NCBI GenBank assembly: GCA_963733195.1
Contig: CAVTCR010000024.1
Location: forward strand, 1 to 64,000
DNA length: 64,000 nt
Source of the DNA: an uncultured delta proteobacterium
GTDB lineage: Bacteria > Desulfobacterota > Binatia > Bin18
Direction: 5' to 3'
In this document: positions 5,750 through 59,214 of the stretch, piece after piece
Position numbering within the stretch: position 1 is the first letter of the stretch
Layout: every line of letters begins with the position of its first letter
Notes under the pieces: model-generated
What the model was told of the DNA's origin: nothing
What the model saw: the letters and a program-made list of their open reading frames with translations, nothing else
Database searches by the model: none
Translations under genes and position numbers: made by a program

Positions 5750-7099
5750 TTACTGTTTTCTTTGCTGGGCCAACACCCGACTCCGCAAGGGCTCTTCCTG
5801 CAACGCCGACATCGGCCGTAGGAGTTGAAACACCTCTGTCACCAGCCGTTGCACCGCGGGATCCTCTCGTTGCAGCTGATCGACCGCCGCGAAGTAGCGT
5901 GCCCCCTGTTCCACGCCCGGCGGCCGTTCGCCTCGGGTCTGCGGATAGGCAAAATCGAAACCAGCGGCAAGCGACCAGGGAGTGCTGTTGATTTCTGCCA
6001 CCTTAGGAAAAAACGACAGGGCAATGCCATCGAGGCCGCGGGACTGTGCCGCGCGTTCGGACAATATTTGCTGCAGCACTCTCGCCTGTAAGGCCGCCGC
6101 GCTCATCCCTTGCGCGTAGATCGGATTGAAGCTGCAAACTGCGTCGCCCAGGATCAGGAACCCTTCCGGAAAGGACGCCATCCGCTCATAGTGACGCTGC
6201 ACGCTGGTCGGAAACCGGTAATGGTTGATCTGCGTCAACTGCTCCGCTTCGCCGATGAGCTCATAGATAAAAGGGGAATGGAACTCCTTCGCGAAGGTGA
6301 AGAACCCAGCCTGGTCAGTCGGGGGATAGTCGCCGAAGCGGCCGATGAGGCTCACCAGCAAGGTCTCGTGCTCGATCGTGATCAGGTAGCCGCGCCGGGT
6401 GAAGTGTGGCGCTGGACCCGTCACGAAGATGAGCGGTTCACCAGCGTAGGACTTGGGCTTGCGGAAGTGCGCGGTGCTGTAGGCGGTGTCCACGCCGATG
6501 GTGGTTTCATCGGGCCGCGAAAATCCCATGGCCTCAAGCCATTGCGGAGCACGAGAGCCACGCCCTCCGGCATCCACCACCAACTCCGCTGCGAACGAGC
6601 GTGAGCCGCTGCAGCGCACGCCCTGGACGTGTCCGCCGCTGTGCGCCAGCTCGTGCACCGTGATGCCAGTCTCGAGCTTCACATTCGGCAGTGCCAGGGT
6701 CAGCCGTCGGACCAGGAATTCGATGAGCCCCCGGCTCGCGCAATGCGCTTCAAACCCGAGATCGAGCGGCTCTCGCAACGACCCGGTCGGATTGTAGGCT
6801 TTCCCGTCGGGCAGGTACCAGACGATATCCCGGCCGACGATGGCCCGCGTGGCACCAAGCGTGCGTAATTCTCCGGTAAAGCCGGGATAGAGCGACGACA
6901 GCACCTGCTGTCCACCTTGCAACAGCCCGTGCAGATGATTCCCCTGCGGAATCGACTTGTGAATGACAGGACGGTCTTCAATCTCATCGCGCTCGAGCAC
7001 CGTGACGTGGTCGAAGTAATCAGCGAGCACTCGCGCGGTCATCAGTCCCGCTAGGCTGCCGCCGATGACGACTGCATGTTGACCGAGGGGATTCCCCAT
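5750..7099 (-). CDS. FAD-dependent oxidoreductase/monooxygenase
   Basis: GGSLAGL Rossmann motif, VVDAGGRGS and GDAVCSFNPIYAQGMS. Confidence 0.85.
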   Translation of the reverse strand: MGNPLGQHAVVIGGSLAGLMTARVLADYFDHVTVLERDEIEDRPVIHKSIPQGNHLHGLLQGGQQVLSSLYPGFTGELRTLGATRAIVGRDIVWYLPDGKAYNPTGSLREPLDLGFEAHCASRGLIEFLVRRLTLALPNVKLETGITVHELAHSGGHVQGVRCSGSRSFAAELVVDAGGRGSRAPQWLEAMGFSRPDETTIGVDTAYSTAHFRKPKSYAGEPLIFVTGPAPHFTRRGYLITIEHETLLVSLIGRFGDYPPTDQAGFFTFAKEFHSPFIYELIGEAEQLTQINHYRFPTSVQRHYERMASFPEGFLILGDAVCSFNPIYAQGMSAAALQARVLQQILSERAAQSRGLDGIALSFFPKVAEINSTPWSLAAGFDFAYPQTRGERPPGVEQGARYFAAVDQLQREDPAVQRLVTEVFQLLRPMSALQEEPLRSRVLAQQRKQ

Positions 7100-50498: not shown

Positions 50499-51958
50499 CT
50501 GTAAGCGCTACAGTAGTTGCCGTCTTTGGTGCGGATGAGGTCGAGACGCCTTGGTGCACACAGCCCGTAAGTTAGCCGGACCCGAGAGCCTCCTGAGGCA
50601 CCACTCAAGGTTGCGCCCGTCACGGGAAAGCACGGATAGCAGACTCTTTCTTGCATGGGGTTCTCCCCGCCAGAGGCGAAAGGAGCCTGAGATGGAAGTC
50701 GTCTACGAGTGTTGTTGTGGGCTCGACGTGCACGCCAAGACGGTTGTGGCGTGTGTGATCAAGAAAGGGCGAAAGGAAATTCGTACTTTTGCGACGATGA
50801 CGGAGGAGTTGTTGTCCCTTGGGGATTGGTTGATCAGCGAGGGCTGCACGCATGTGGCGATCGAGAGTACGGGGGTGTACTGGAAGCCGGTGTTCAATCT
50901 CTTGGAAGGGACGGTCGAGGTGATCCTCGTCAACGCGCGGCATATCAAAGCAGTGCCAGGGCGAAAGACTGATGTACGCGATTGCGAGTGGTTAGCGGAT
51001 TTGTTGCGGCATGGCTTATTGCGGGCCAGTTTTATTCCGCCGCAGGAGATTCGGGAGTTACGGGAGTTAACGCGCTATCGGCAAACCCTGCTGCGCGAAC
51101 ACACTGCCGTGGCCAATCGGCTGCAAAAACTGCTGGAAAGTGGGAACATCAAGTTGGGGCAAGTAGCAAGTGACGTACTGGGCCTGAGTGGGCGTTTGAT
51201 GTTGCACGCCTTAGCCGAAGGCGAGCAGGATGCGCGGAAGTTGGCCGAGCTGGCCCAAGGGAAGCTGAAGAATAAAAAGGACGCCCTGCGGCATGCGTTA
51301 GTCGGGCGGTTGACGCCAGTGCAACGCTGGGTGCTGGGCGAATTACTTGCGCGGGTCGAGGAACTGGATACCGCGCTTCAGCGTGTCGAGACTCGGATCG
51401 GGGAGGAAGTCGAGCACTGCTCCGACCCTTTCGTGCAGGAGGCTGTGGTGTTGCTCGATAGTATGCCGGGGATTGGCGAACACATCGCGCGCACGGTTGT
51501 CTCTGAGATTGGTGTCGACATGGCACGATTTCCCTCCGCCGAACATTTGGCGAGTTGGGCAGGGCTGTGTCCGGGCAACAATGAGTCCGCGGGCAAGCGG
51601 AAGAGTGGGCAGACGACCAAAGGCAGCCAGTATCTGCGCACCGCCCTGGTTGAAGCAGCATGGGCCGCGACGCGGGCGAAGGGGACGTTTCTGGCTGCCA
51701 AGTATTACCGCCTGGTGAAACGGATGGGCAAGAAGAAAGCGCTTGTTGCAGTGGCGCATGGCATGTTACGAGTGATTTATCCTCTGCTCCGTCGCCGCGT
51801 GGGCTACACAGACTTAGGCAGTGAGTACGTAACACAGCACCAGGTCGAGCAGCAACGGCAACGCTTAGTGAAGAAACTGGAAGCTCTTGGCCTGAAGGTC
51901 ACGCTTGAAGAAGTCGGACAAGCCGCGTAGCTCACTTACTGAGGCATTTTCATAGCAG
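50499..51958 (+). mobile_element. IS110-family element with upstream non-coding end (boundaries tentative)
   Basis: AGGCCT on both flanks (50495-50500 and 51957-51962); ~190-bp leader; ends TTTTCATAGCAG; alternative left end at 50414. Confidence 0.7.
50692..51930 (+). CDS. IS110 DEDD recombinase/transposase
   Basis: GLDVH, IESTGVYWKP, GRKTDVRDCEW, PGIG and SWAGLCPGNNESAGK. Confidence 0.95.
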   Translation: MEVVYECCCGLDVHAKTVVACVIKKGRKEIRTFATMTEELLSLGDWLISEGCTHVAIESTGVYWKPVFNLLEGTVEVILVNARHIKAVPGRKTDVRDCEWLADLLRHGLLRASFIPPQEIRELRELTRYRQTLLREHTAVANRLQKLLESGNIKLGQVASDVLGLSGRLMLHALAEGEQDARKLAELAQGKLKNKKDALRHALVGRLTPVQRWVLGELLARVEELDTALQRVETRIGEEVEHCSDPFVQEAVVLLDSMPGIGEHIARTVVSEIGVDMARFPSAEHLASWAGLCPGNNESAGKRKSGQTTKGSQYLRTALVEAAWAATRAKGTFLAAKYYRLVKRMGKKKALVAVAHGMLRVIYPLLRRRVGYTDLGSEYVTQHQVEQQRQRLVKKLEALGLKVTLEEVGQAA

Positions 51959-54947: not shown

Positions 54948-57062
54948 ATGACTATTCGCGAATTGCTTGAGGGGATCAAGAAGATGGACCTGGTTCTCCC
55001 AGAATTCCAGCGCGAGTACGTGTGGGAAAAGGAACAGGCCAAACAACTTCTGGTCTCGCTTACCCGAGGCTACCCAACAGGCAGCCTTCTCGTCTGGAAA
55101 ACCGACAATCCCCCAGACATCAAGAATAGCGCCATCGACCGCGAGCACATCGGAACGACATCGGTCATTCTTGATGGCCAACAGCGGCTCACTACGCTCT
55201 ATCTTTTCACTCGTGGAGAGATTCCGCCTTACTACACCTCAAATGACATCCAGAACGACCCTCGAGATCTCTATTTCGATCTTGAAACTGGTGACTTTCA
55301 GTACTTTCAGCCGATGCGCATGCAGGGCAATCCCACCTGGGTAGCTGTCACTGAGTGCTTTCGTCCAGAACCGCTCAATGTCTTTGAGCTCGCCAGGAAG
55401 AAAGCGGTGACATCCATTGACCCCTTTCAGCTTGCTCAAACTTACAACAATAATCTAAATCGGTTGCGGAATATTCTCGAAAAGGACTACCCGATTCAGA
55501 CAGTTCCCTCTTCGGCCGAAATCGACGACGCAATCGATGTCTTCGACCGGGTGAACAGCCTCGGCACCAAGTTGACAGATGCTGACCTCGCGCTAGCCCA
55601 TATCACGGGAAAGTGGCCTCAAGCACGACGAGTAATGAAGGAGAAAATCGTAGAGCTAGGAAAACGGCACTTTTATTTCGACCTCACGTTTTTGGTTCGT
55701 AGTCTGACCGGGGTGGTCAAAGGACGTGCGCTTTTCGATACGATTCATGGGACCCCGGCAGACGAAATCAAAAACGGCTGGACTCGATTATCAAAGCTTT
55801 TGGACTACCTTGCTAGCGTGCTTCCGAAGCACGCACATGTTCATTCAACCGAAGACCTTAACACGACTAACGTTTTGGTCCCTGCGGTGGTCTATCTGGC
55901 TCACCACGAGGGCAAGTTCGGTTCAGACCAGGATCTACGACGGTTTATCCATTGGATGTACGCTGCCTCCGCATGGAGCCGTTATACTAGCCAGACAGAC
56001 CAACGACTCGATCACGATATTTCTCTTATCGTGCGCGAGCGAGACCCTTGGGCCGACCTAGTGGGCGCAATCGTCGAACAGCGTGGCCGCATCGAGGTTA
56101 AGGCCGCAGACTTGGAGGGCAGAGGCACACAACATCCGCTCTACAGGATGATGTACATCCTTGCCAAGCGCAGAGGTGCTGCGGATTGGTTCAATGGCAT
56201 GCCCCTGGACACAAACGTTGCCGGCGCATACGCAATCCATAGTCATCACATCTTCCCGACGTCCCTTCTCTACAATGCTGGCGGATACAGTCCCGAGAAC
56301 CACCTCCATAAGAAGATCGTAAATGAAATTGCGAATCGTGCGTTTCTCACGGATGAGACGAACTGGGCTCTTACGAACCGCCCTCCAGCTGAATATCTCT
56401 CCGAAATCCAGCGGCGATATCCTGGCGCTTTGATGAAGCAGTTCATTCCTGAGGACTCTGCCGTGTGGTCTTTGAATCGTTATGAGGACTTCCTGCAACG
56501 ACGGCGTGAGTCCATCGCTGACGCTTTCAACGAGTTAATGACCACTCTGACGGGCGAAATTGAGCTGCCACGAGAGCAGACGCTAGCCGAACTGCTTGTA
56601 GCAGGGGAGACTGCTACAGTCGAATTCAAGTCCTCTTTGAGATGGGACATCCGTGAAAACAGGGTAAACAAAGAACTTGAGAAGATCGTGGCAAAGACCA
56701 TCGCGGGATACCTTAATGTCGAGGGTGGTGTCCTTCTACTTGGAGTCTCGGACGATGGAAGTATCGTCGGACTCGGCAATGACTTTACCAGCCTTCCGCA
56801 CCAAAATCGGGATGGATTTGCTCAACAAATAGCTCAAGTGATTTCGTCCTACCTTGGTGCAGAGTTTGCCCCTTACGTTCGAGTTACATTCGAGGATCTT
56901 AATGGAAAGACGGCGTGTCTCGTAAGGGTCGAAGCAAGCCCGCGTCCTGTCTTCCTCGCAGACAAGGGCACGAAAGAGTTCTACATACGCACGGGTAACA
57001 CGACTCGCCCTCTCGATATGGAAGCTATGCACAACTATATCGGGATGCATTGGGAGATGTAG
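54948..57062 (+). CDS. Cassette 5: GmrSD-type (DUF262 + HNH-like DUF1524) protein fused to a C-terminal AlbA_2/Schlafen domain
   Basis: LPEFQREYVW, ILDGQQRLTTL, FDRVNSLG; HSHHIFP...IANRAFL; GETATVEFKSS...GYLNVEGGVLLLGVSDDG. Confidence 0.85.
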   Translation: MTIRELLEGIKKMDLVLPEFQREYVWEKEQAKQLLVSLTRGYPTGSLLVWKTDNPPDIKNSAIDREHIGTTSVILDGQQRLTTLYLFTRGEIPPYYTSNDIQNDPRDLYFDLETGDFQYFQPMRMQGNPTWVAVTECFRPEPLNVFELARKKAVTSIDPFQLAQTYNNNLNRLRNILEKDYPIQTVPSSAEIDDAIDVFDRVNSLGTKLTDADLALAHITGKWPQARRVMKEKIVELGKRHFYFDLTFLVRSLTGVVKGRALFDTIHGTPADEIKNGWTRLSKLLDYLASVLPKHAHVHSTEDLNTTNVLVPAVVYLAHHEGKFGSDQDLRRFIHWMYAASAWSRYTSQTDQRLDHDISLIVRERDPWADLVGAIVEQRGRIEVKAADLEGRGTQHPLYRMMYILAKRRGAADWFNGMPLDTNVAGAYAIHSHHIFPTSLLYNAGGYSPENHLHKKIVNEIANRAFLTDETNWALTNRPPAEYLSEIQRRYPGALMKQFIPEDSAVWSLNRYEDFLQRRRESIADAFNELMTTLTGEIELPREQTLAELLVAGETATVEFKSSLRWDIRENRVNKELEKIVAKTIAGYLNVEGGVLLLGVSDDGSIVGLGNDFTSLPHQNRDGFAQQIAQVISSYLGAEFAPYVRVTFEDLNGKTACLVRVEASPRPVFLADKGTKEFYIRTGNTTRPLDMEAMHNYIGMHWEM

Positions 57063-57095
57063 CTTGGCAACTGGGCGGAACGGCAAGCTAACCCC

Positions 57096-57600
57096 TATCA
57101 GGCCGCCGATGTCAAGAGGGCAGACGGATGCATCGCGGGGGCGGGGTGGCCGTCCGAGAAACATATGGTGAACCATCTTCGCCAAGCGTTTGCGGCTGAC
57201 TTGATTTCGGTTGCTGGTCACAGCCTGTGAGCTGCACCAAACACCTATTGAGGGTCGATGTTTCCGTGGAGCAATGTTCCACGGGAAACAGTGGCCCCCG
57301 CAAGAGGCCACGTCCTAGAAACTCTTCTGTGCCCTCATGCCGGTCTTCTCAATGCAGCGGGTTGTGTCCGAAGACACTCCTAGTTAGTGCCAGACTCGGG
57401 GGAGGGGCAGCCACGGGGCACTTGGTGACGGATCACCAAGAAGATGAGCGGGAGAGACGGTCCAATCAAACGCCTGCGGCTCCGGGGCTGTGCGTCCAGA
57501 TGTTCCCTCACAGTCCGTGCTGTATATATAAGGAAGGAACATCGAAGGGGCTCTACCCGTTGTCGGCCAGTTAGGCGGCGGGCTCCGTCTCTCCCCTCAG
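57096..57600 (-). ncRNA. Candidate bridge/seek RNA of the attC-targeting IS110
   Basis: Several hairpins including GTGTC-TTCG-GACAC (minus strand); CAACCCGCTGC (revcomp of 57354-57364) matches junction 58735-58745; GCCTAAC (revcomp of 57570-57576). Confidence 0.55.
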
Positions 57601-57603
57601 CGG

Positions 57604-58649
57604 TTACGCGGTGACAAAGCGATTGAGATCAAACGCTTGTTCCCGCGTGAGCATGTAGTACACGGCCCGGCCCAGCTTGTGCGCGAGCACGGTGAGCGCT
57701 TTGGCTTTGCCGTGTTTGTGTTCCAATTTCGCAAAATACTCTTTGCCCGGTTGATTCTGCCGTAAGAAGAGGACCGCGGCTTCGGCAAACGCCCAGCGCA
57801 AGTGCACGTTGCCGATCTTTTTGCCCGAGGTGCCCAGCCGTTTGCCGCCCGATTCTTTGGCGCACTTCACCAAGCGACAGTAGGAGACAAAATCTTGCAC
57901 GCGCGGAAAGCGGGCGATGTCCTGAATTTCATACAGAATGACCAACGCCAGAATCTGCCCGATGCCCGGGACGGATTGGAGCCGGGCGAACGTCTGGACA
58001 TCGTGCGTTTTGGCACTCCGGGTAATGATAGAGTTCCACTTCGCCGAGCAATTTGTCATAGTGATCAATGAGCGACACATCGACTTCAATGGTCTTGCGG
58101 ACACTGGGATCGGGAAAGTGCTCTTCCACTCCCTCGCGATTGGCTTTGTACGCCAGCTTTTTGCCGATCTCGGGGAGATTGTACTGACTATTGGTATTGT
58201 GGATGTGGGCTAAGAGTTCGGCGCGTTTGCGTACCAGATGACAGCGACGGCGTAGCAAGTCTCGGGTCGCCCGCATCTCTGCAGGATAGACATACGCTTG
58301 GGGGAACATCCCGCCGCGCAATAAGACCGCAATCTTGTGCGCATCAATTTTATCGTTCTTGGCTTTGCCCCCATGAATCGCCTTCATATAGAGGGCATGG
58401 CCCAGGACAAAGGCAATTCCTTCCTTCTGACAGAGGTCCGCCAGCCAATACCACGTGAACATACATTCGACGCCGACGACCACATCCTCGCGATACGGCG
58501 CAATGATCCGCAAAAACGCCTCGGGGGTCGTCGGCAGATTTTTGTGGACCAGTTTCGTGCCACTGTTGATCGAGGATACAGACGTACATCGCCTTCGCAT
58601 GTAGATCGATGCCACAATAATGTTTATGTTGCTGCGTGTAGAAATTCAT
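57604..58649 (-). CDS. IS110 transposase (frameshifted)
   Basis: YCGIDLHAK, VECMFTWYW, KAKNDKIDA, SVPGIG, SYCRL...ESGGK and GNVHLRWAF.EAA. Confidence 0.9.
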
Positions 58650-58905
58650 CCAGGTATCCTCCTTGTGGAGTGGATTGTTGTGGTACAGCCATCCTACCGC
58701 TGCACTCGCAGCACGAGGAGGCCTGGATGAGTATCAACCCGCTGCCACCGCATCGCCGCCCGGTTGCGGTTCTGGCTGAACCTGAAAGGCCGCGTTGGGG
58801 CGGCTCGCGGTGACGCGGGGGCGTTAGGCCACAGTGGTGGAAGCAACATAACCACCAGGGTGTCATAGAGATCGGAACACTTCAGACATACGGGAGGATG
58901 ACGAC

Positions 58906-59214
58906 ATGCAAGCCTATGCTATCGGCACAGTTCAAATGCGAGATCAGTCCTGGGTGGAAGAATATCTTGCAAAGCTCCAGCCTTTGCTTGAGAAGCACGG
59001 TGGGCGATGTTTGGTCCGTGCGTGGGAAATGGAAAAACTTGAAGGGACCGCACCACCGCCCAGTGTGCTGGTCGTGCTTGAGTTCCCGACCATAGATCAC
59101 GCACGAGCGTGGTACCGAGACCCGGAATACGCACCCCTCATCAAGTTGCGGCAAGGCGGCTCTGAGGCCGAGTTAATCTTGGCCGAAGGGGTATCATTTG
59201 GTCCTACCTCGTAA
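58906..59214 (+). CDS. DUF1330 domain protein
   Basis: HGGR.LVR, LEG, VVLEFP, WY..PEYAPLIKLRQ. Confidence 0.88.
   Translation: MQAYAIGTVQMRDQSWVEEYLAKLQPLLEKHGGRCLVRAWEMEKLEGTAPPPSVLVVLEFPTIDHARAWYRDPEYAPLIKLRQGGSEAELILAEGVSFGPTS

Follow-up and report, generated by a model that had tools for sequence, protein, structure and literature searches.

A decaying IS1111-type element beside the R'' box of an attC site and the candidate guide RNA of its non-coding tail

Introduction

When an insertion sequence is found to split an attC site, the question arises whether its non-coding end encodes an RNA that directs it there, and which bases of such an RNA would read the target. The locus considered here lies on contig CAVTCR010000024.1 of an uncultured delta proteobacterium, of which we analysed a stretch of 64,000 nucleotides (positions 1 to 64,000, the window). 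A preliminary description, made from the letters alone, had placed an IS110-family element in this attC and had proposed a natural RNA-guided recombinase, programmed for the attC family of this integron by an 11-nt guide in the tail of the element. The background to which it appealed is published: IS1111-type elements encode a seekRNA or bridge RNA in a long non-coding region downstream of the transposase gene, and some of them target attC (PMC11187229, PMC11208160). ISKpn4 and ISPst6 produce seekRNAs of 82–86 nt from the downstream non-coding region (NCR) that match both strands of the target (PMC11187229), and the IS1111-attC elements insert near the 5' end of attC and antisense to the cassettes (PMC3001079).

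A broken member of the IS110 family

The element and its coding parts are as follows.
57093–58735, minus strand: IS110-family element of the IS1111 type, 1,643 bp, with ends placed to within about 1 nt
57604–58649, minus strand: transposase pseudogene in three frames, with shifts near 58560–58565 and 58026–58030
58650–58735, minus strand: short left end, containing a subterminal repeat at 58720–58728
57097–57104, no strand assigned: right subterminal inverted repeat, partner of 58720–58728, recognised by eye

The DEDD-type transposase gene runs on the minus strand from 58649 down to 57604. Pfam searches with pieces of the window copy returned PF01548 (E = 9.7e-12) and PF02371 (E = 5.4e-21), the pairing of an N-terminal DEDD/RuvC-like domain with a C-terminal Transposase_20 domain that marks the IS110 family. 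Both domains are likewise present in the open genomic copy, copy E, whose transposase is 358 aa long and also scores 204 bits against the NCBIfam model NF033542 (cut-off 140). The window gene itself is broken, a feature on which the preliminary description was silent: blastx against an intact homologue follows it through three frames, and the list of open reading frames and the alignment of the copies agree on two frameshifts, which leave this copy unable to make transposase. The window copy is thus a broken member of the family and not a non-member. The transposase is open in one of six genomic copies, and shifts or stops occur in 10 of 15 full copies.

The six full copies in the genome are 81–100% identical and share the same ends; the boundaries given above follow from uninterrupted neighbouring attCs in relatives and from the spacing of the attC arms. 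Downstream of the transposase gene the non-coding tail measures 511 nt (57093–57603), which bears out the approximately 510 bp reported earlier, against 86 nt upstream. This is the layout of the IS1111 group, for which a longer non-coding region downstream of the transposase gene is diagnostic (PMC11187229). The subterminal repeats (57097–57104 and 58720–58728) agree at 8 of 9 positions with a one-base indel and lie 4 and 7 nt from the ends, although the pair does not figure among the 25 longest inverted pairs listed for the 1.7-kb stretch. For the ends of IS1111 elements a '7 and 3 bases' rule is known, and gamma-proteobacterial relatives of the window element have a matching arrangement of their subterminal repeats. 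In size the element resembles ISPst6, which spans 1,713 bp (PMC11187229), the present one measuring some 1.6–1.7 kb.

Two sets of sequences serve for comparison, namely 20 diverged copies from soil genomes of one bacterial family and, as more distant relatives, 80 loci of the 359 that a genome scan confirmed in marine Gammaproteobacteria. Plasmid-borne relatives of at least 44% identity came only from Ca. Manganitrophus, Alteromonas, Pseudoalteromonas, Vibrio and Catenovulum (14 records), and the matches on Klebsiella and E. coli plasmids are about 24% identical.

The insertion point within the attC

The element lies between the two parts of its target.
57086–57092, plus strand: R''-type box of the interrupted attC; 57092–57093 is the right-junction copy of the inferred 2-nt crossover
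58736–58829, plus strand: remainder of the attC, from the L'' arm to the R' box (58823–58829); 58735–58736 is the left-junction copy of the inferred crossover

An nhmmer model of the attC arm has its best match at this remainder, and the attC family that it describes occurs on many contigs. With its transposase gene on the minus strand and the adjoining cassette ORFs on the plus strand, the element is antisense to the cassettes; in this respect, as in its position beside the R'' box, the earlier reading is upheld. Place and orientation within an attC do not vary in the family: they agree in all 15 copies for which the left flank is present and in all 18 for which the right flank is, and all 18 right ends continue on their contigs into the same type of box remainder. 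Every row of the relatives that shows its flanks likewise has the insertion near the 5' end of an attC and antisense to the cassettes. By description the published IS1111-attC group (ISPa21, ISPst6, ISKpn4, ISPa25) shares this position and orientation; a further mark of that group is a monophyletic transposase clade to which ISPa21 and ISPst6 belong. The same niche, on the attC bottom strand and antisense to cassettes, is taken by the group IIC-attC introns (PMC3001079); these move as retroelements, by means of a ribozyme and a reverse transcriptase, and their mechanism is therefore unrelated. Separately, the present genome has intron-like 5' ends at the same point of three attCs.

How the empty site would read is best told from attCs that have escaped insertion. 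At four loci of relatives (L104, L105, L112 and L125) the neighbouring uninterrupted attC passes from the last flank base directly into the box, with no duplication. Judged by eye, the spacing from arm to box in this genome is 9–10 nt in uninterrupted attCs and 8–10 nt in occupied ones if nothing was duplicated. The simplest empty site reconstructed in the preliminary description, which assumes a shared GTT, leaves only 5–7 nt; it is 3 nt too short and is contradicted by the neighbouring attCs. A duplicated TT or GTT was rejected on the arm spacing, the junctions of the copies and the neighbouring attCs in relatives. Insertion is thus site-specific and without target duplication, on the evidence of neighbouring attCs in relatives and of arm spacing in this genome. 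ISEc11 compares closely here, as it too has a downstream NCR and subterminal inverted repeats, and shows no duplication once one copy of the repeated bases is counted as part of the element (PMC11187229).

Direct searches yielded neither an empty site nor a joint. Among 55 genomes of the family that were searched, the window's own was the sole one to contain the left-side cassette, and the search with the right side returned only other attCs and remote gene matches. The contigs of four public runs showed neither a joint across the element nor a circle junction, which is evidence neither way; 24 public runs were listed, none with more than 0.22 of the sampled words.

The junctions, rather than a circle junction, point to a 2-nt TG crossover. 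Its first base is always T at the left, and at the right it is G, T or A in 12, 3 and 2 of 18 copies, so that the first core base differs between the two junctions in most copies. In IS621 the core is CT.

The non-coding tail and its loop domain

Within the tail the following features bear on a guide function.
57318–57412, minus strand: stem-enclosed loop, candidate target-binding loop of a seekRNA/bridge RNA, from the consensus fold and the relatives
57383–57387, minus strand: pentamer on the 5' side of the loop, the complement of the R'' box on the top strand of the element, resembling a right target guide
57364–57377, minus strand: inner hairpin of the loop; 57379–57380 also pair with 57359–57360
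57350–57356, minus strand: 3' side of the loop before the closing stem, a hypervariable 4–6 nt followed by three constant bases, resembling a left target guide
57570–57576, minus strand: first copy of a box-like heptamer, 28 nt after the stop codon
57240–57249, minus strand: donor-end-like segment, in the same sense as the right end of the element and the first flank bases

The tail is not unusually long, contrary to what had been suggested, relatives of the clade having 458–492 nt against 511 nt here. The loop as read on the RNA strand in the preliminary description is correct as written, being the reverse complement of 57350–57391. It is homologous to a conserved stem-enclosed internal loop of marine relatives that are 53–56% identical. 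A consensus fold of 20 copies gives 22 pairs, one of them with a compensatory change, and in 33 relatives the homologous domain has a closing stem with compensatory changes in four of seven pairs. The relatives carry a hairpin at the same place in the loop, variable in sequence and length.

It is very improbable that the tail encodes no functional RNA and is a decaying remnant whose conserved stretches are protein-binding end sequences. The decay of the window gene and of most full copies would fit such an account, as would the folding of the loop domain as a single sequence, which is no more stable than that of shuffled sequences (z = 0.08), and Rfam, searched at a permissive threshold over 56900–59000, gave no match. 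The account is opposed by the conservation of the tail in the 53–56% identical relatives with intact genes, by the compensatory changes in the stem, by an internal segment that covaries with the right end, and by the requirement for an NCR RNA published as family-wide (PMC11187229). Contigs of two metatranscriptome runs overlap parts of the element at 85–95% likeness, but they show neither strand nor ends and do not demonstrate transcription.

The two sides of the loop behave differently. The match of the CUAAC pentamer to the R'' box was recognised at the outset and stands, since the pentamer is complementary to the box on the top strand of the element. It is unchanged in 13 of 20 copies, varies at one position in the other seven and is kept in the relatives; the variants of those seven copies do not track their own flanks. 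The pentamer plausibly reads the R'' box.

On the 3' side, the three constant bases agree in sense with the last bases of the left flank and the crossover. When the 3' side was compared with its own flank, anchored and in the same sense, the 20 copies scored 2.20 versus 1.73 of 8, which 1050 of 20,000 permutations reach, and 55 loci of relatives scored 2.53 versus 1.93 of 8, which none of 20,000 permutations reaches; copies and hosts are related, so that these figures overstate independence. In the window's own group this left-side signal is marginal. Unanchored local alignment in the relatives gave no same-sense signal (866 of 5,000 permutations) and a weak signal for the complement (96 of 5,000). 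As the two tests disagree on polarity, the argument from polarity rests on the anchored test and the published mechanism. When the same-sense comparison of 3' side and flank was extended and every register allowed, occupied and unoccupied sites did not differ.

The 11-nt segment as a proposed guide

The segment to which the preliminary description gave the leading part overlaps the 3' side of the loop.
57354–57364, minus strand: 11-nt segment, perfectly complementary to 58735–58745 as an inverted pair

Under the proposal this segment would pair with the left half of the target, on the strand to which the pentamer also pairs. The RNA would then read an unbroken run of about 15 bases on the attC bottom strand that spans the insertion point, its own two pairing parts being separated by the hairpin. 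The match is real as a perfect inverted pair anchored exactly at the junction and placed inside a conserved loop, although it is not a match to flank throughout, base 58735 being the first base of the element. How uncommon it is can be gauged from 2,000 shuffles of the tail, compared in either sense with the 25-nt flank: an exact match of at least 10 arose anywhere in the tail in only 48 of them and one of at least 11 in eight. The same 1.7-kb stretch contains one further perfect 11-nt inverted pair and three perfect 10-nt pairs, and on both counts the match is uncommon and not extreme. Its less likely part is the place in the loop and the exact anchoring.

Occupied sites lend the proposal some support. 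Gapped complement scoring reaches at least 19 in 4 of 15 occupied sites, against 1 of 36 unoccupied sites scored with the window RNA, and T, T and G at positions -1, -2 and -3 are found in 15, 11 and 7 of 15 occupied and in 9, 20 and 7 of 36 unoccupied sites, comparisons that are not clean because one genome supplied all the unoccupied sites and seven genomes the occupied ones. The enriched G at -3 is compatible with complement pairing and not with a same-sense segment, and the weak complement signal of the unanchored test in relatives points the same way. Beyond -3, however, the segment does not separate occupied from unoccupied attCs (4.27 versus 4.06 of 8, p = 0.50). Nor does it follow its own target, as the covariation of loop and target foreseen in the preliminary description would require: complementarity of each RNA to its own flank is no better than to mismatched flanks (3.80 versus 3.59 of 8, reached in 3697 of 20,000 permutations), and a further comparison of own and mismatched pairs gave 14.93 versus 14.81. 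The first seven bases are identical in 13 of 20 copies despite differing flanks, close to the invariance across different targets that the description had itself named as telling against a guide, and relatives with flanks unable to pair with this heptamer start carry it all the same. Two of the 11 bases lie in the predicted stem of the hairpin. The polarity is also contrary to the published systems. IS621 has a left guide for the bottom strand and a right guide for the top strand (PMC11208158); by this rule a left guide would not pair, as the 11-nt segment would, with the strand that the pentamer uses. In the IS1111 seekRNAs, those of the attC-targeting ISKpn4 and ISPst6 included, the two matches are to opposite strands, with the top-strand match 5' of the bottom-strand match (PMC11187229).

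We regard the 11-nt segment as an unlikely guide. The match is best read as a family-level likeness to the GC-rich attC arm together with chance, and it is probably not what aims the element. Of the RNA-guided reading as first put forward, the IS1111 type, the tail, the conserved loop and the complementarity of the pentamer hold, and the 11-nt segment as a programmed guide is not supported, on grounds of polarity, constancy and the test against its own flank.

A related single-strand scheme is improbable in our estimation. It would have the RNA of the soil lineage read both target halves on one strand, the attC bottom strand that integrons use, with a split guide that flanks the hairpin and copies the R'/L' arm. 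Were this true, what the element recognises would be attC DNA in unwound or folded form instead of a duplex, the same-sense segment would be a remnant, and the one-sided pattern of the first crossover base would reflect a different geometry.

The module after the stop codon and the donor-end segment

The second heptamer noted earlier directly after the stop codon is present (57570–57576). It is part of a module that resembles the 5' half of the loop domain and recurs in all six genomic copies and in relatives. This module could be the true reader of the target, which counts against the scheme that we favour, and would leave the loop to serve another step such as recognition of the integrated junctions for excision. 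The same pentamer in a similar 5' context is there twice in each of the six copies and in relatives; published work finds circle formation to depend on bases of the target that flank the element (PMC11187229); and by eye the donor-end segment fits the integrated right junction better than a circle junction. Against this, it is the loop domain, the second of the two modules, that has the form of a stem-enclosed loop and a 3' side that tracks the flank in relatives, and we hold the module after the stop codon to be a doubtful, rather improbable candidate.

The donor-end segment at 57240–57249 matches an end of its own element and covaries with it, as expected of a bridge RNA. A G variant appears in both the segment and the right end at L097, L100 and L114, the common T variant in both at L057, L098, L123, L077 and L081, and L023 and L037 each have variants of their own in both places. 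A search of the tail for a complement to the left end of the element found nothing consistent at 6 nt or more.

A proposed mechanism and its relation to known systems

We consider it likely that the window holds a non-autonomous, decaying IS1111-type copy whose lineage uses an RNA-guided scheme built on the pentamer, the short 3' segment and the donor-end segment. The lineage inserts orientation-specifically into attC, where it lies immediately next to the R'' box and duplicates no target bases. Homology with ISEc11, ISKpn4 and IS621 suggests that a seekRNA/bridge-like RNA is transcribed from the 3' non-coding region, and it is on analogy with these systems that RNA production, binding by the transposase and pairing by the segments named here are proposed. 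In the loop at 57318–57412 the 5' pentamer would pair with the R'' box on the top strand of the element, which is the attC bottom strand, and the short 3' segment, in the sense of the left-flank end, would pair with the other strand. The second segment, about 100 nt downstream (57240–57249), would read the right end of the element itself, and strand exchange would take place at the 2-nt TG adjoining the box. All attCs share the box and only a short stretch would be read on the left, and we propose that many attCs of the host's family are for this reason open to the element.

The guide-RNA systems described so far resemble this scheme in part. The bridge RNA of IS621 likewise has a target loop and a donor loop, the same strands for its two guides and a 2-nt core (PMC11208158, PMC11208160), but it lies upstream and the order of the guides in its loop is reversed relative to the window element. 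ISEc11 has a top-strand match 5' of a bottom-strand match, the two overlapping at the insertion point; its target is a short linear site of 12 bp (PMC11187229), whereas the target here is a structured attC family. Its tail is also far shorter, the NCR that was removed comprising bases 1170–1374 of about 1.44 kb, against 511 nt with two pentamer modules here.

Implications

As IS1111 elements that target attC and possess seekRNAs are already described (PMC11187229), the window adds no new principle. What it provides is a natural comparison set of 20 soil copies, 80 loci from the 359 confirmed relatives, and attCs by the dozen, some occupied and others not. With these sequences the place of insertion is fixed next to the R'' box and a TG crossover is suggested; the conserved loop can be told apart from the hypervariable stretch of 4–6 nt, and the donor-end segment is recognised. 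They could help to show how a guide RNA handles a target family that is conserved in structure and not in sequence, and how such elements shape large chromosomal cassette arrays.

Structure and setting of the element

The element encodes on the minus strand an IS110-family transposase (58649-57604), whose pieces match PF01548 and PF02371 (Pfam), with 86 nt upstream of the start codon and 511 nt without coding signal downstream of the stop codon. Two frameshifts interrupt the gene, which spans three overlapping ORFs in the ORF listing; alignment of the copies places the shifts near 58560-58565 and 58026-58030, and blastx against the intact Vibrio campbellii homologue also needs three frames. 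As had been proposed in the preliminary description, the element lies within an attC and antisense to the cassettes, the neighbouring cassette ORFs being on the plus strand.

Features of the occupied site:
57086-57092: R''-type box, which the element adjoins inside the attC
57093-58735, minus strand: IS1111-type element, 1,643 bp
58736-58829: remaining attC, ending in the R' box at 58823-58829

The integron cassette into whose attC the element has inserted (54948-57062, plus strand) carries a predicted defence-like gene for a 704-aa protein with GmrSD_N restriction-endonuclease and Schlafen AlbA_2 domains; it is followed by cassettes for a DUF1330 protein and a SnoaL-like protein. The window also holds a second IS110-family ORF, distinct from the first (50551-51930, plus strand, 459 aa), which shares 36% identity with the studied element in its C-terminal domain.

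Searched with an nhmmer model for the attC arm, the genome gave 55 sites, six occupied by the element, 36 uninterrupted and 13 others. Sites of one family occur on more than 25 contigs, and the window's contig carries cassettes without an integrase. A single intact integron integrase is encoded elsewhere in the genome (C33:20009-20953; 477 bits against a cut-off of 265), alongside at least seven integrase fragments or broken copies on other contigs. In three same-family attCs outside the window (C56 ~71,880-71,970; C6 ~101,465-101,560; C55 ~5,818-5,900) a shared sequence resembling a group II intron 5' end breaks the site at this same point beside the R'' box; such interruptions would agree with group IIC-attC introns, whose target is the bottom strand of attC.

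Copies in the genome and family

The genome contains six full copies (81-100% identity) besides shorter right-end fragments, and the tail was matched in 14 of 55 family genomes, this one included. Wherever flanking sequence remains on the contig (left in 15 copies, right in 18), it represents the same place in the attC and the same orientation. Five of the 15 full copies have a single open frame (L013, L031, L005, L030, L017), and ten carry shifts or in-frame stops. Since the sole open copy in the genome is copy E (C34:5929-7558; 358 aa; NF033542 at 204 bits, cut-off 140) and the window copy's own frame is broken, the latter could be mobile only with help in trans.

The right-end fragments, 105-170 nt long, lack the rest of the element and are each followed by an R''-type flank; they occur in this genome (C56:189882-190015, C47:62007-62159, C5:56248-56310, C16:34154-34271, C49:9721-9833) and at loci L007, L008, L023, L024 and L033-L038, and could be remnants of decayed copies or the ends of relatives that have diverged. 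Several related-genome contigs terminate within the fragment stretch. At C62 ~322,233-322,303 an attC arm is joined directly to the last ~60 nt of the right end, which looks like an internal deletion of nearly the whole element. In contigs of two rhizosphere metagenome runs the family reaches 10-100x the depth of its flanks.

Insertion point and crossover

A contig scan confirmed 359 relatives, 80 loci of which were fetched. They reside in attC-like sites of marine Gammaproteobacteria, have intact genes, measure 1.58-1.67 kb and share ~53-56% protein identity with the window's element (a figure taken from plasmid matches), with a nearly identical left end. At four loci (L104, L105, L112, L125) the occupied attC has an uninterrupted neighbour with which it aligns as far as the junction, three of the four pairs being 95-97% identical over 50-64 nt, and in every neighbour the last left-flank base is followed directly by a complete box, without duplication. 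Judged by eye, the conserved arm and the box are 9-10 nt apart in uninterrupted sites of the same subfamily in the window's genome. In occupied sites the distance is 8-10 nt with a complete flank and would be only 5-7 nt if, as first reconstructed, three bases before the box remainder are common to element and target. The neighbouring attCs and the arm-box spacing speak against this shared-base model: the empty site it gave thus lacks 3 nt, and position 58735 in the 11-nt match is an element base.

The junctions are consistent with exchange at a 2-nt TG formed by the last spacer base and the first box base. The first crossover base is T at the left junction in 15 of 15 copies; at the right junction it is G in 12 of 18, T in three, A in two and ambiguous in one, a mix similar to that of the 36 uninterrupted sites (G 18, T 9, A 8, C 1). 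The two junction copies of the crossover (57092-57093 and 58735-58736 in the window) differ from each other in most copies, which suggests a tolerated mismatch that is always resolved in the same way.

Organisation of the non-coding tail

The tail had been read exactly, including a second box-like heptamer just after the stop codon (57570-57576). Its length had been called unusual; it is long compared with the shorter tail of ISEc11 but normal for its own clade, the tails of the relatives measuring 458-492 nt and aligning with it blockwise. The loop (57318-57412) corresponds to a domain in the relatives that is closed by a stem with compensatory changes in four of seven pairs (33 sequences), and the consensus fold of 20 family copies has the same layout. 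Folded as a single sequence, the loop domain is not more stable than shuffles (z = 0.08).

Order of the loop domain:
First: 5' side, ending in the box-complementary pentamer (57383-57387 in the window)
Second: hairpin of variable sequence and length
Third: 3' side, whose final bases have the same sense as the left-flank end and crossover

A perfect 11-nt complementary pair within the tail (57450-57460 and 57585-57595) is a candidate long-range helix enclosing the first pentamer module. About 100 nt beyond the loop, the segment 57240-57249 reads in the same sense as the right end of the element and covaries with it: relatives L097, L100 and L114 carry a G variant at both, L057, L098, L123, L077 and L081 a T variant in both, and two divergent right-end fragments of the element's own family (L023, L037) have their own variants in both places.

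The 11-nt segment as a proposed guide

The inverted match between 57354-57364 and 58735-58745 is perfect, and the segment had been interpreted as a guide programmed for the attC junction. In IS621 the left guide is reported to pair with the bottom strand and the right guide with the top strand (PMC11208158), and for IS1111 seekRNAs a top-strand match is described 5' of a bottom-strand match, the two overlapping in the target (PMC11187229). By analogy, the pentamer would fit a right guide; pairing of the 11-mer would involve the strand that the pentamer also pairs with, contrary to the published polarity.

In complement polarity, the window RNA matches positions -3 to -10 of occupied sites (n = 15) at a mean of 4.27/8 and of unoccupied sites (n = 36) at 4.06 (p = 0.50); when all ten positions are scored, the difference stems from -1 to -3. 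Nor did RNAs score detectably better on their own flanks than on others in complement polarity, whether gapped (14.93 against 14.81; permutation p = 0.43) or anchored (3.80 against 3.59, reached in 3697 of 20000 permutations). The same-sense anchored test gave 2.20 against 1.73 in the window element's family (1050/20000) and 2.53 against 1.93 at 55 relative loci (0/20000), where 18 of 26 RNA types score better on their own sites. Counter to our reading, unanchored local alignment of the relatives loses the same-sense signal (866/5000) and yields a weak complement signal (96/5000), G at -3 is commoner in occupied sites (7/15) than in unoccupied ones (7/36), and four of the 15 occupied sites score highly in the gapped complement test. 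Because seven genomes supplied the occupied sites and a single one the unoccupied sites, the copies are related and the RNA is reported to be able to act in trans (PMC11187229), the polarity tests are weak both ways.

By chance, a match of at least 10 arises anywhere in the tail in 48 of 2000 shuffles, and unoccupied attCs match the segment at 4.9/10 on average because it resembles the complement of the GC-rich arm. Its first seven bases are identical in 13 of 20 copies, followed on the 3' side by a hypervariable stretch of 4-6 nt (window positions 57353-57356; 20 copies), and two of its bases fall within the base of the predicted hairpin stem. Contigs of the two rhizosphere runs show that most relatives have A instead of G at 57354 (depth 99.9 of 148.9 and 71.2 of 77.5); the G that completes the perfect match is therefore a minority variant. 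Given the unsuitable polarity, the lack of an own-flank advantage and the constancy of seven bases, we regard it as quite unlikely that the segment is a real guide. The sequence facts, the attC site and the orientation in the preliminary description thus stand, whereas its empty site and unusual tail length do not, and its guide is not supported.

Relation to known elements

ISPa21, ISPst6 and their relatives have been described as an IS1111-attC subgroup (PMC3001079), and seekRNAs of 82-86 nt that match the attC target are reported for ISKpn4 and ISPst6, and as common to ISPa25 (PMC11187229). The closest plasmid-borne relatives of the window's element come from Ca. Manganitrophus (66-77% identity) and marine Gammaproteobacteria (44-56%), and matches on Klebsiella and E. 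coli plasmids are ~24% identical. Rfam gave no match over 56900-59000, no empty site for the window copy was found among the 55 family genomes and no circle junction in contigs of four public runs; the RNA-guided mechanism is therefore inferred by homology. Since attC-targeting seekRNA elements are already published, the window's element is an ordinary case of that kind.
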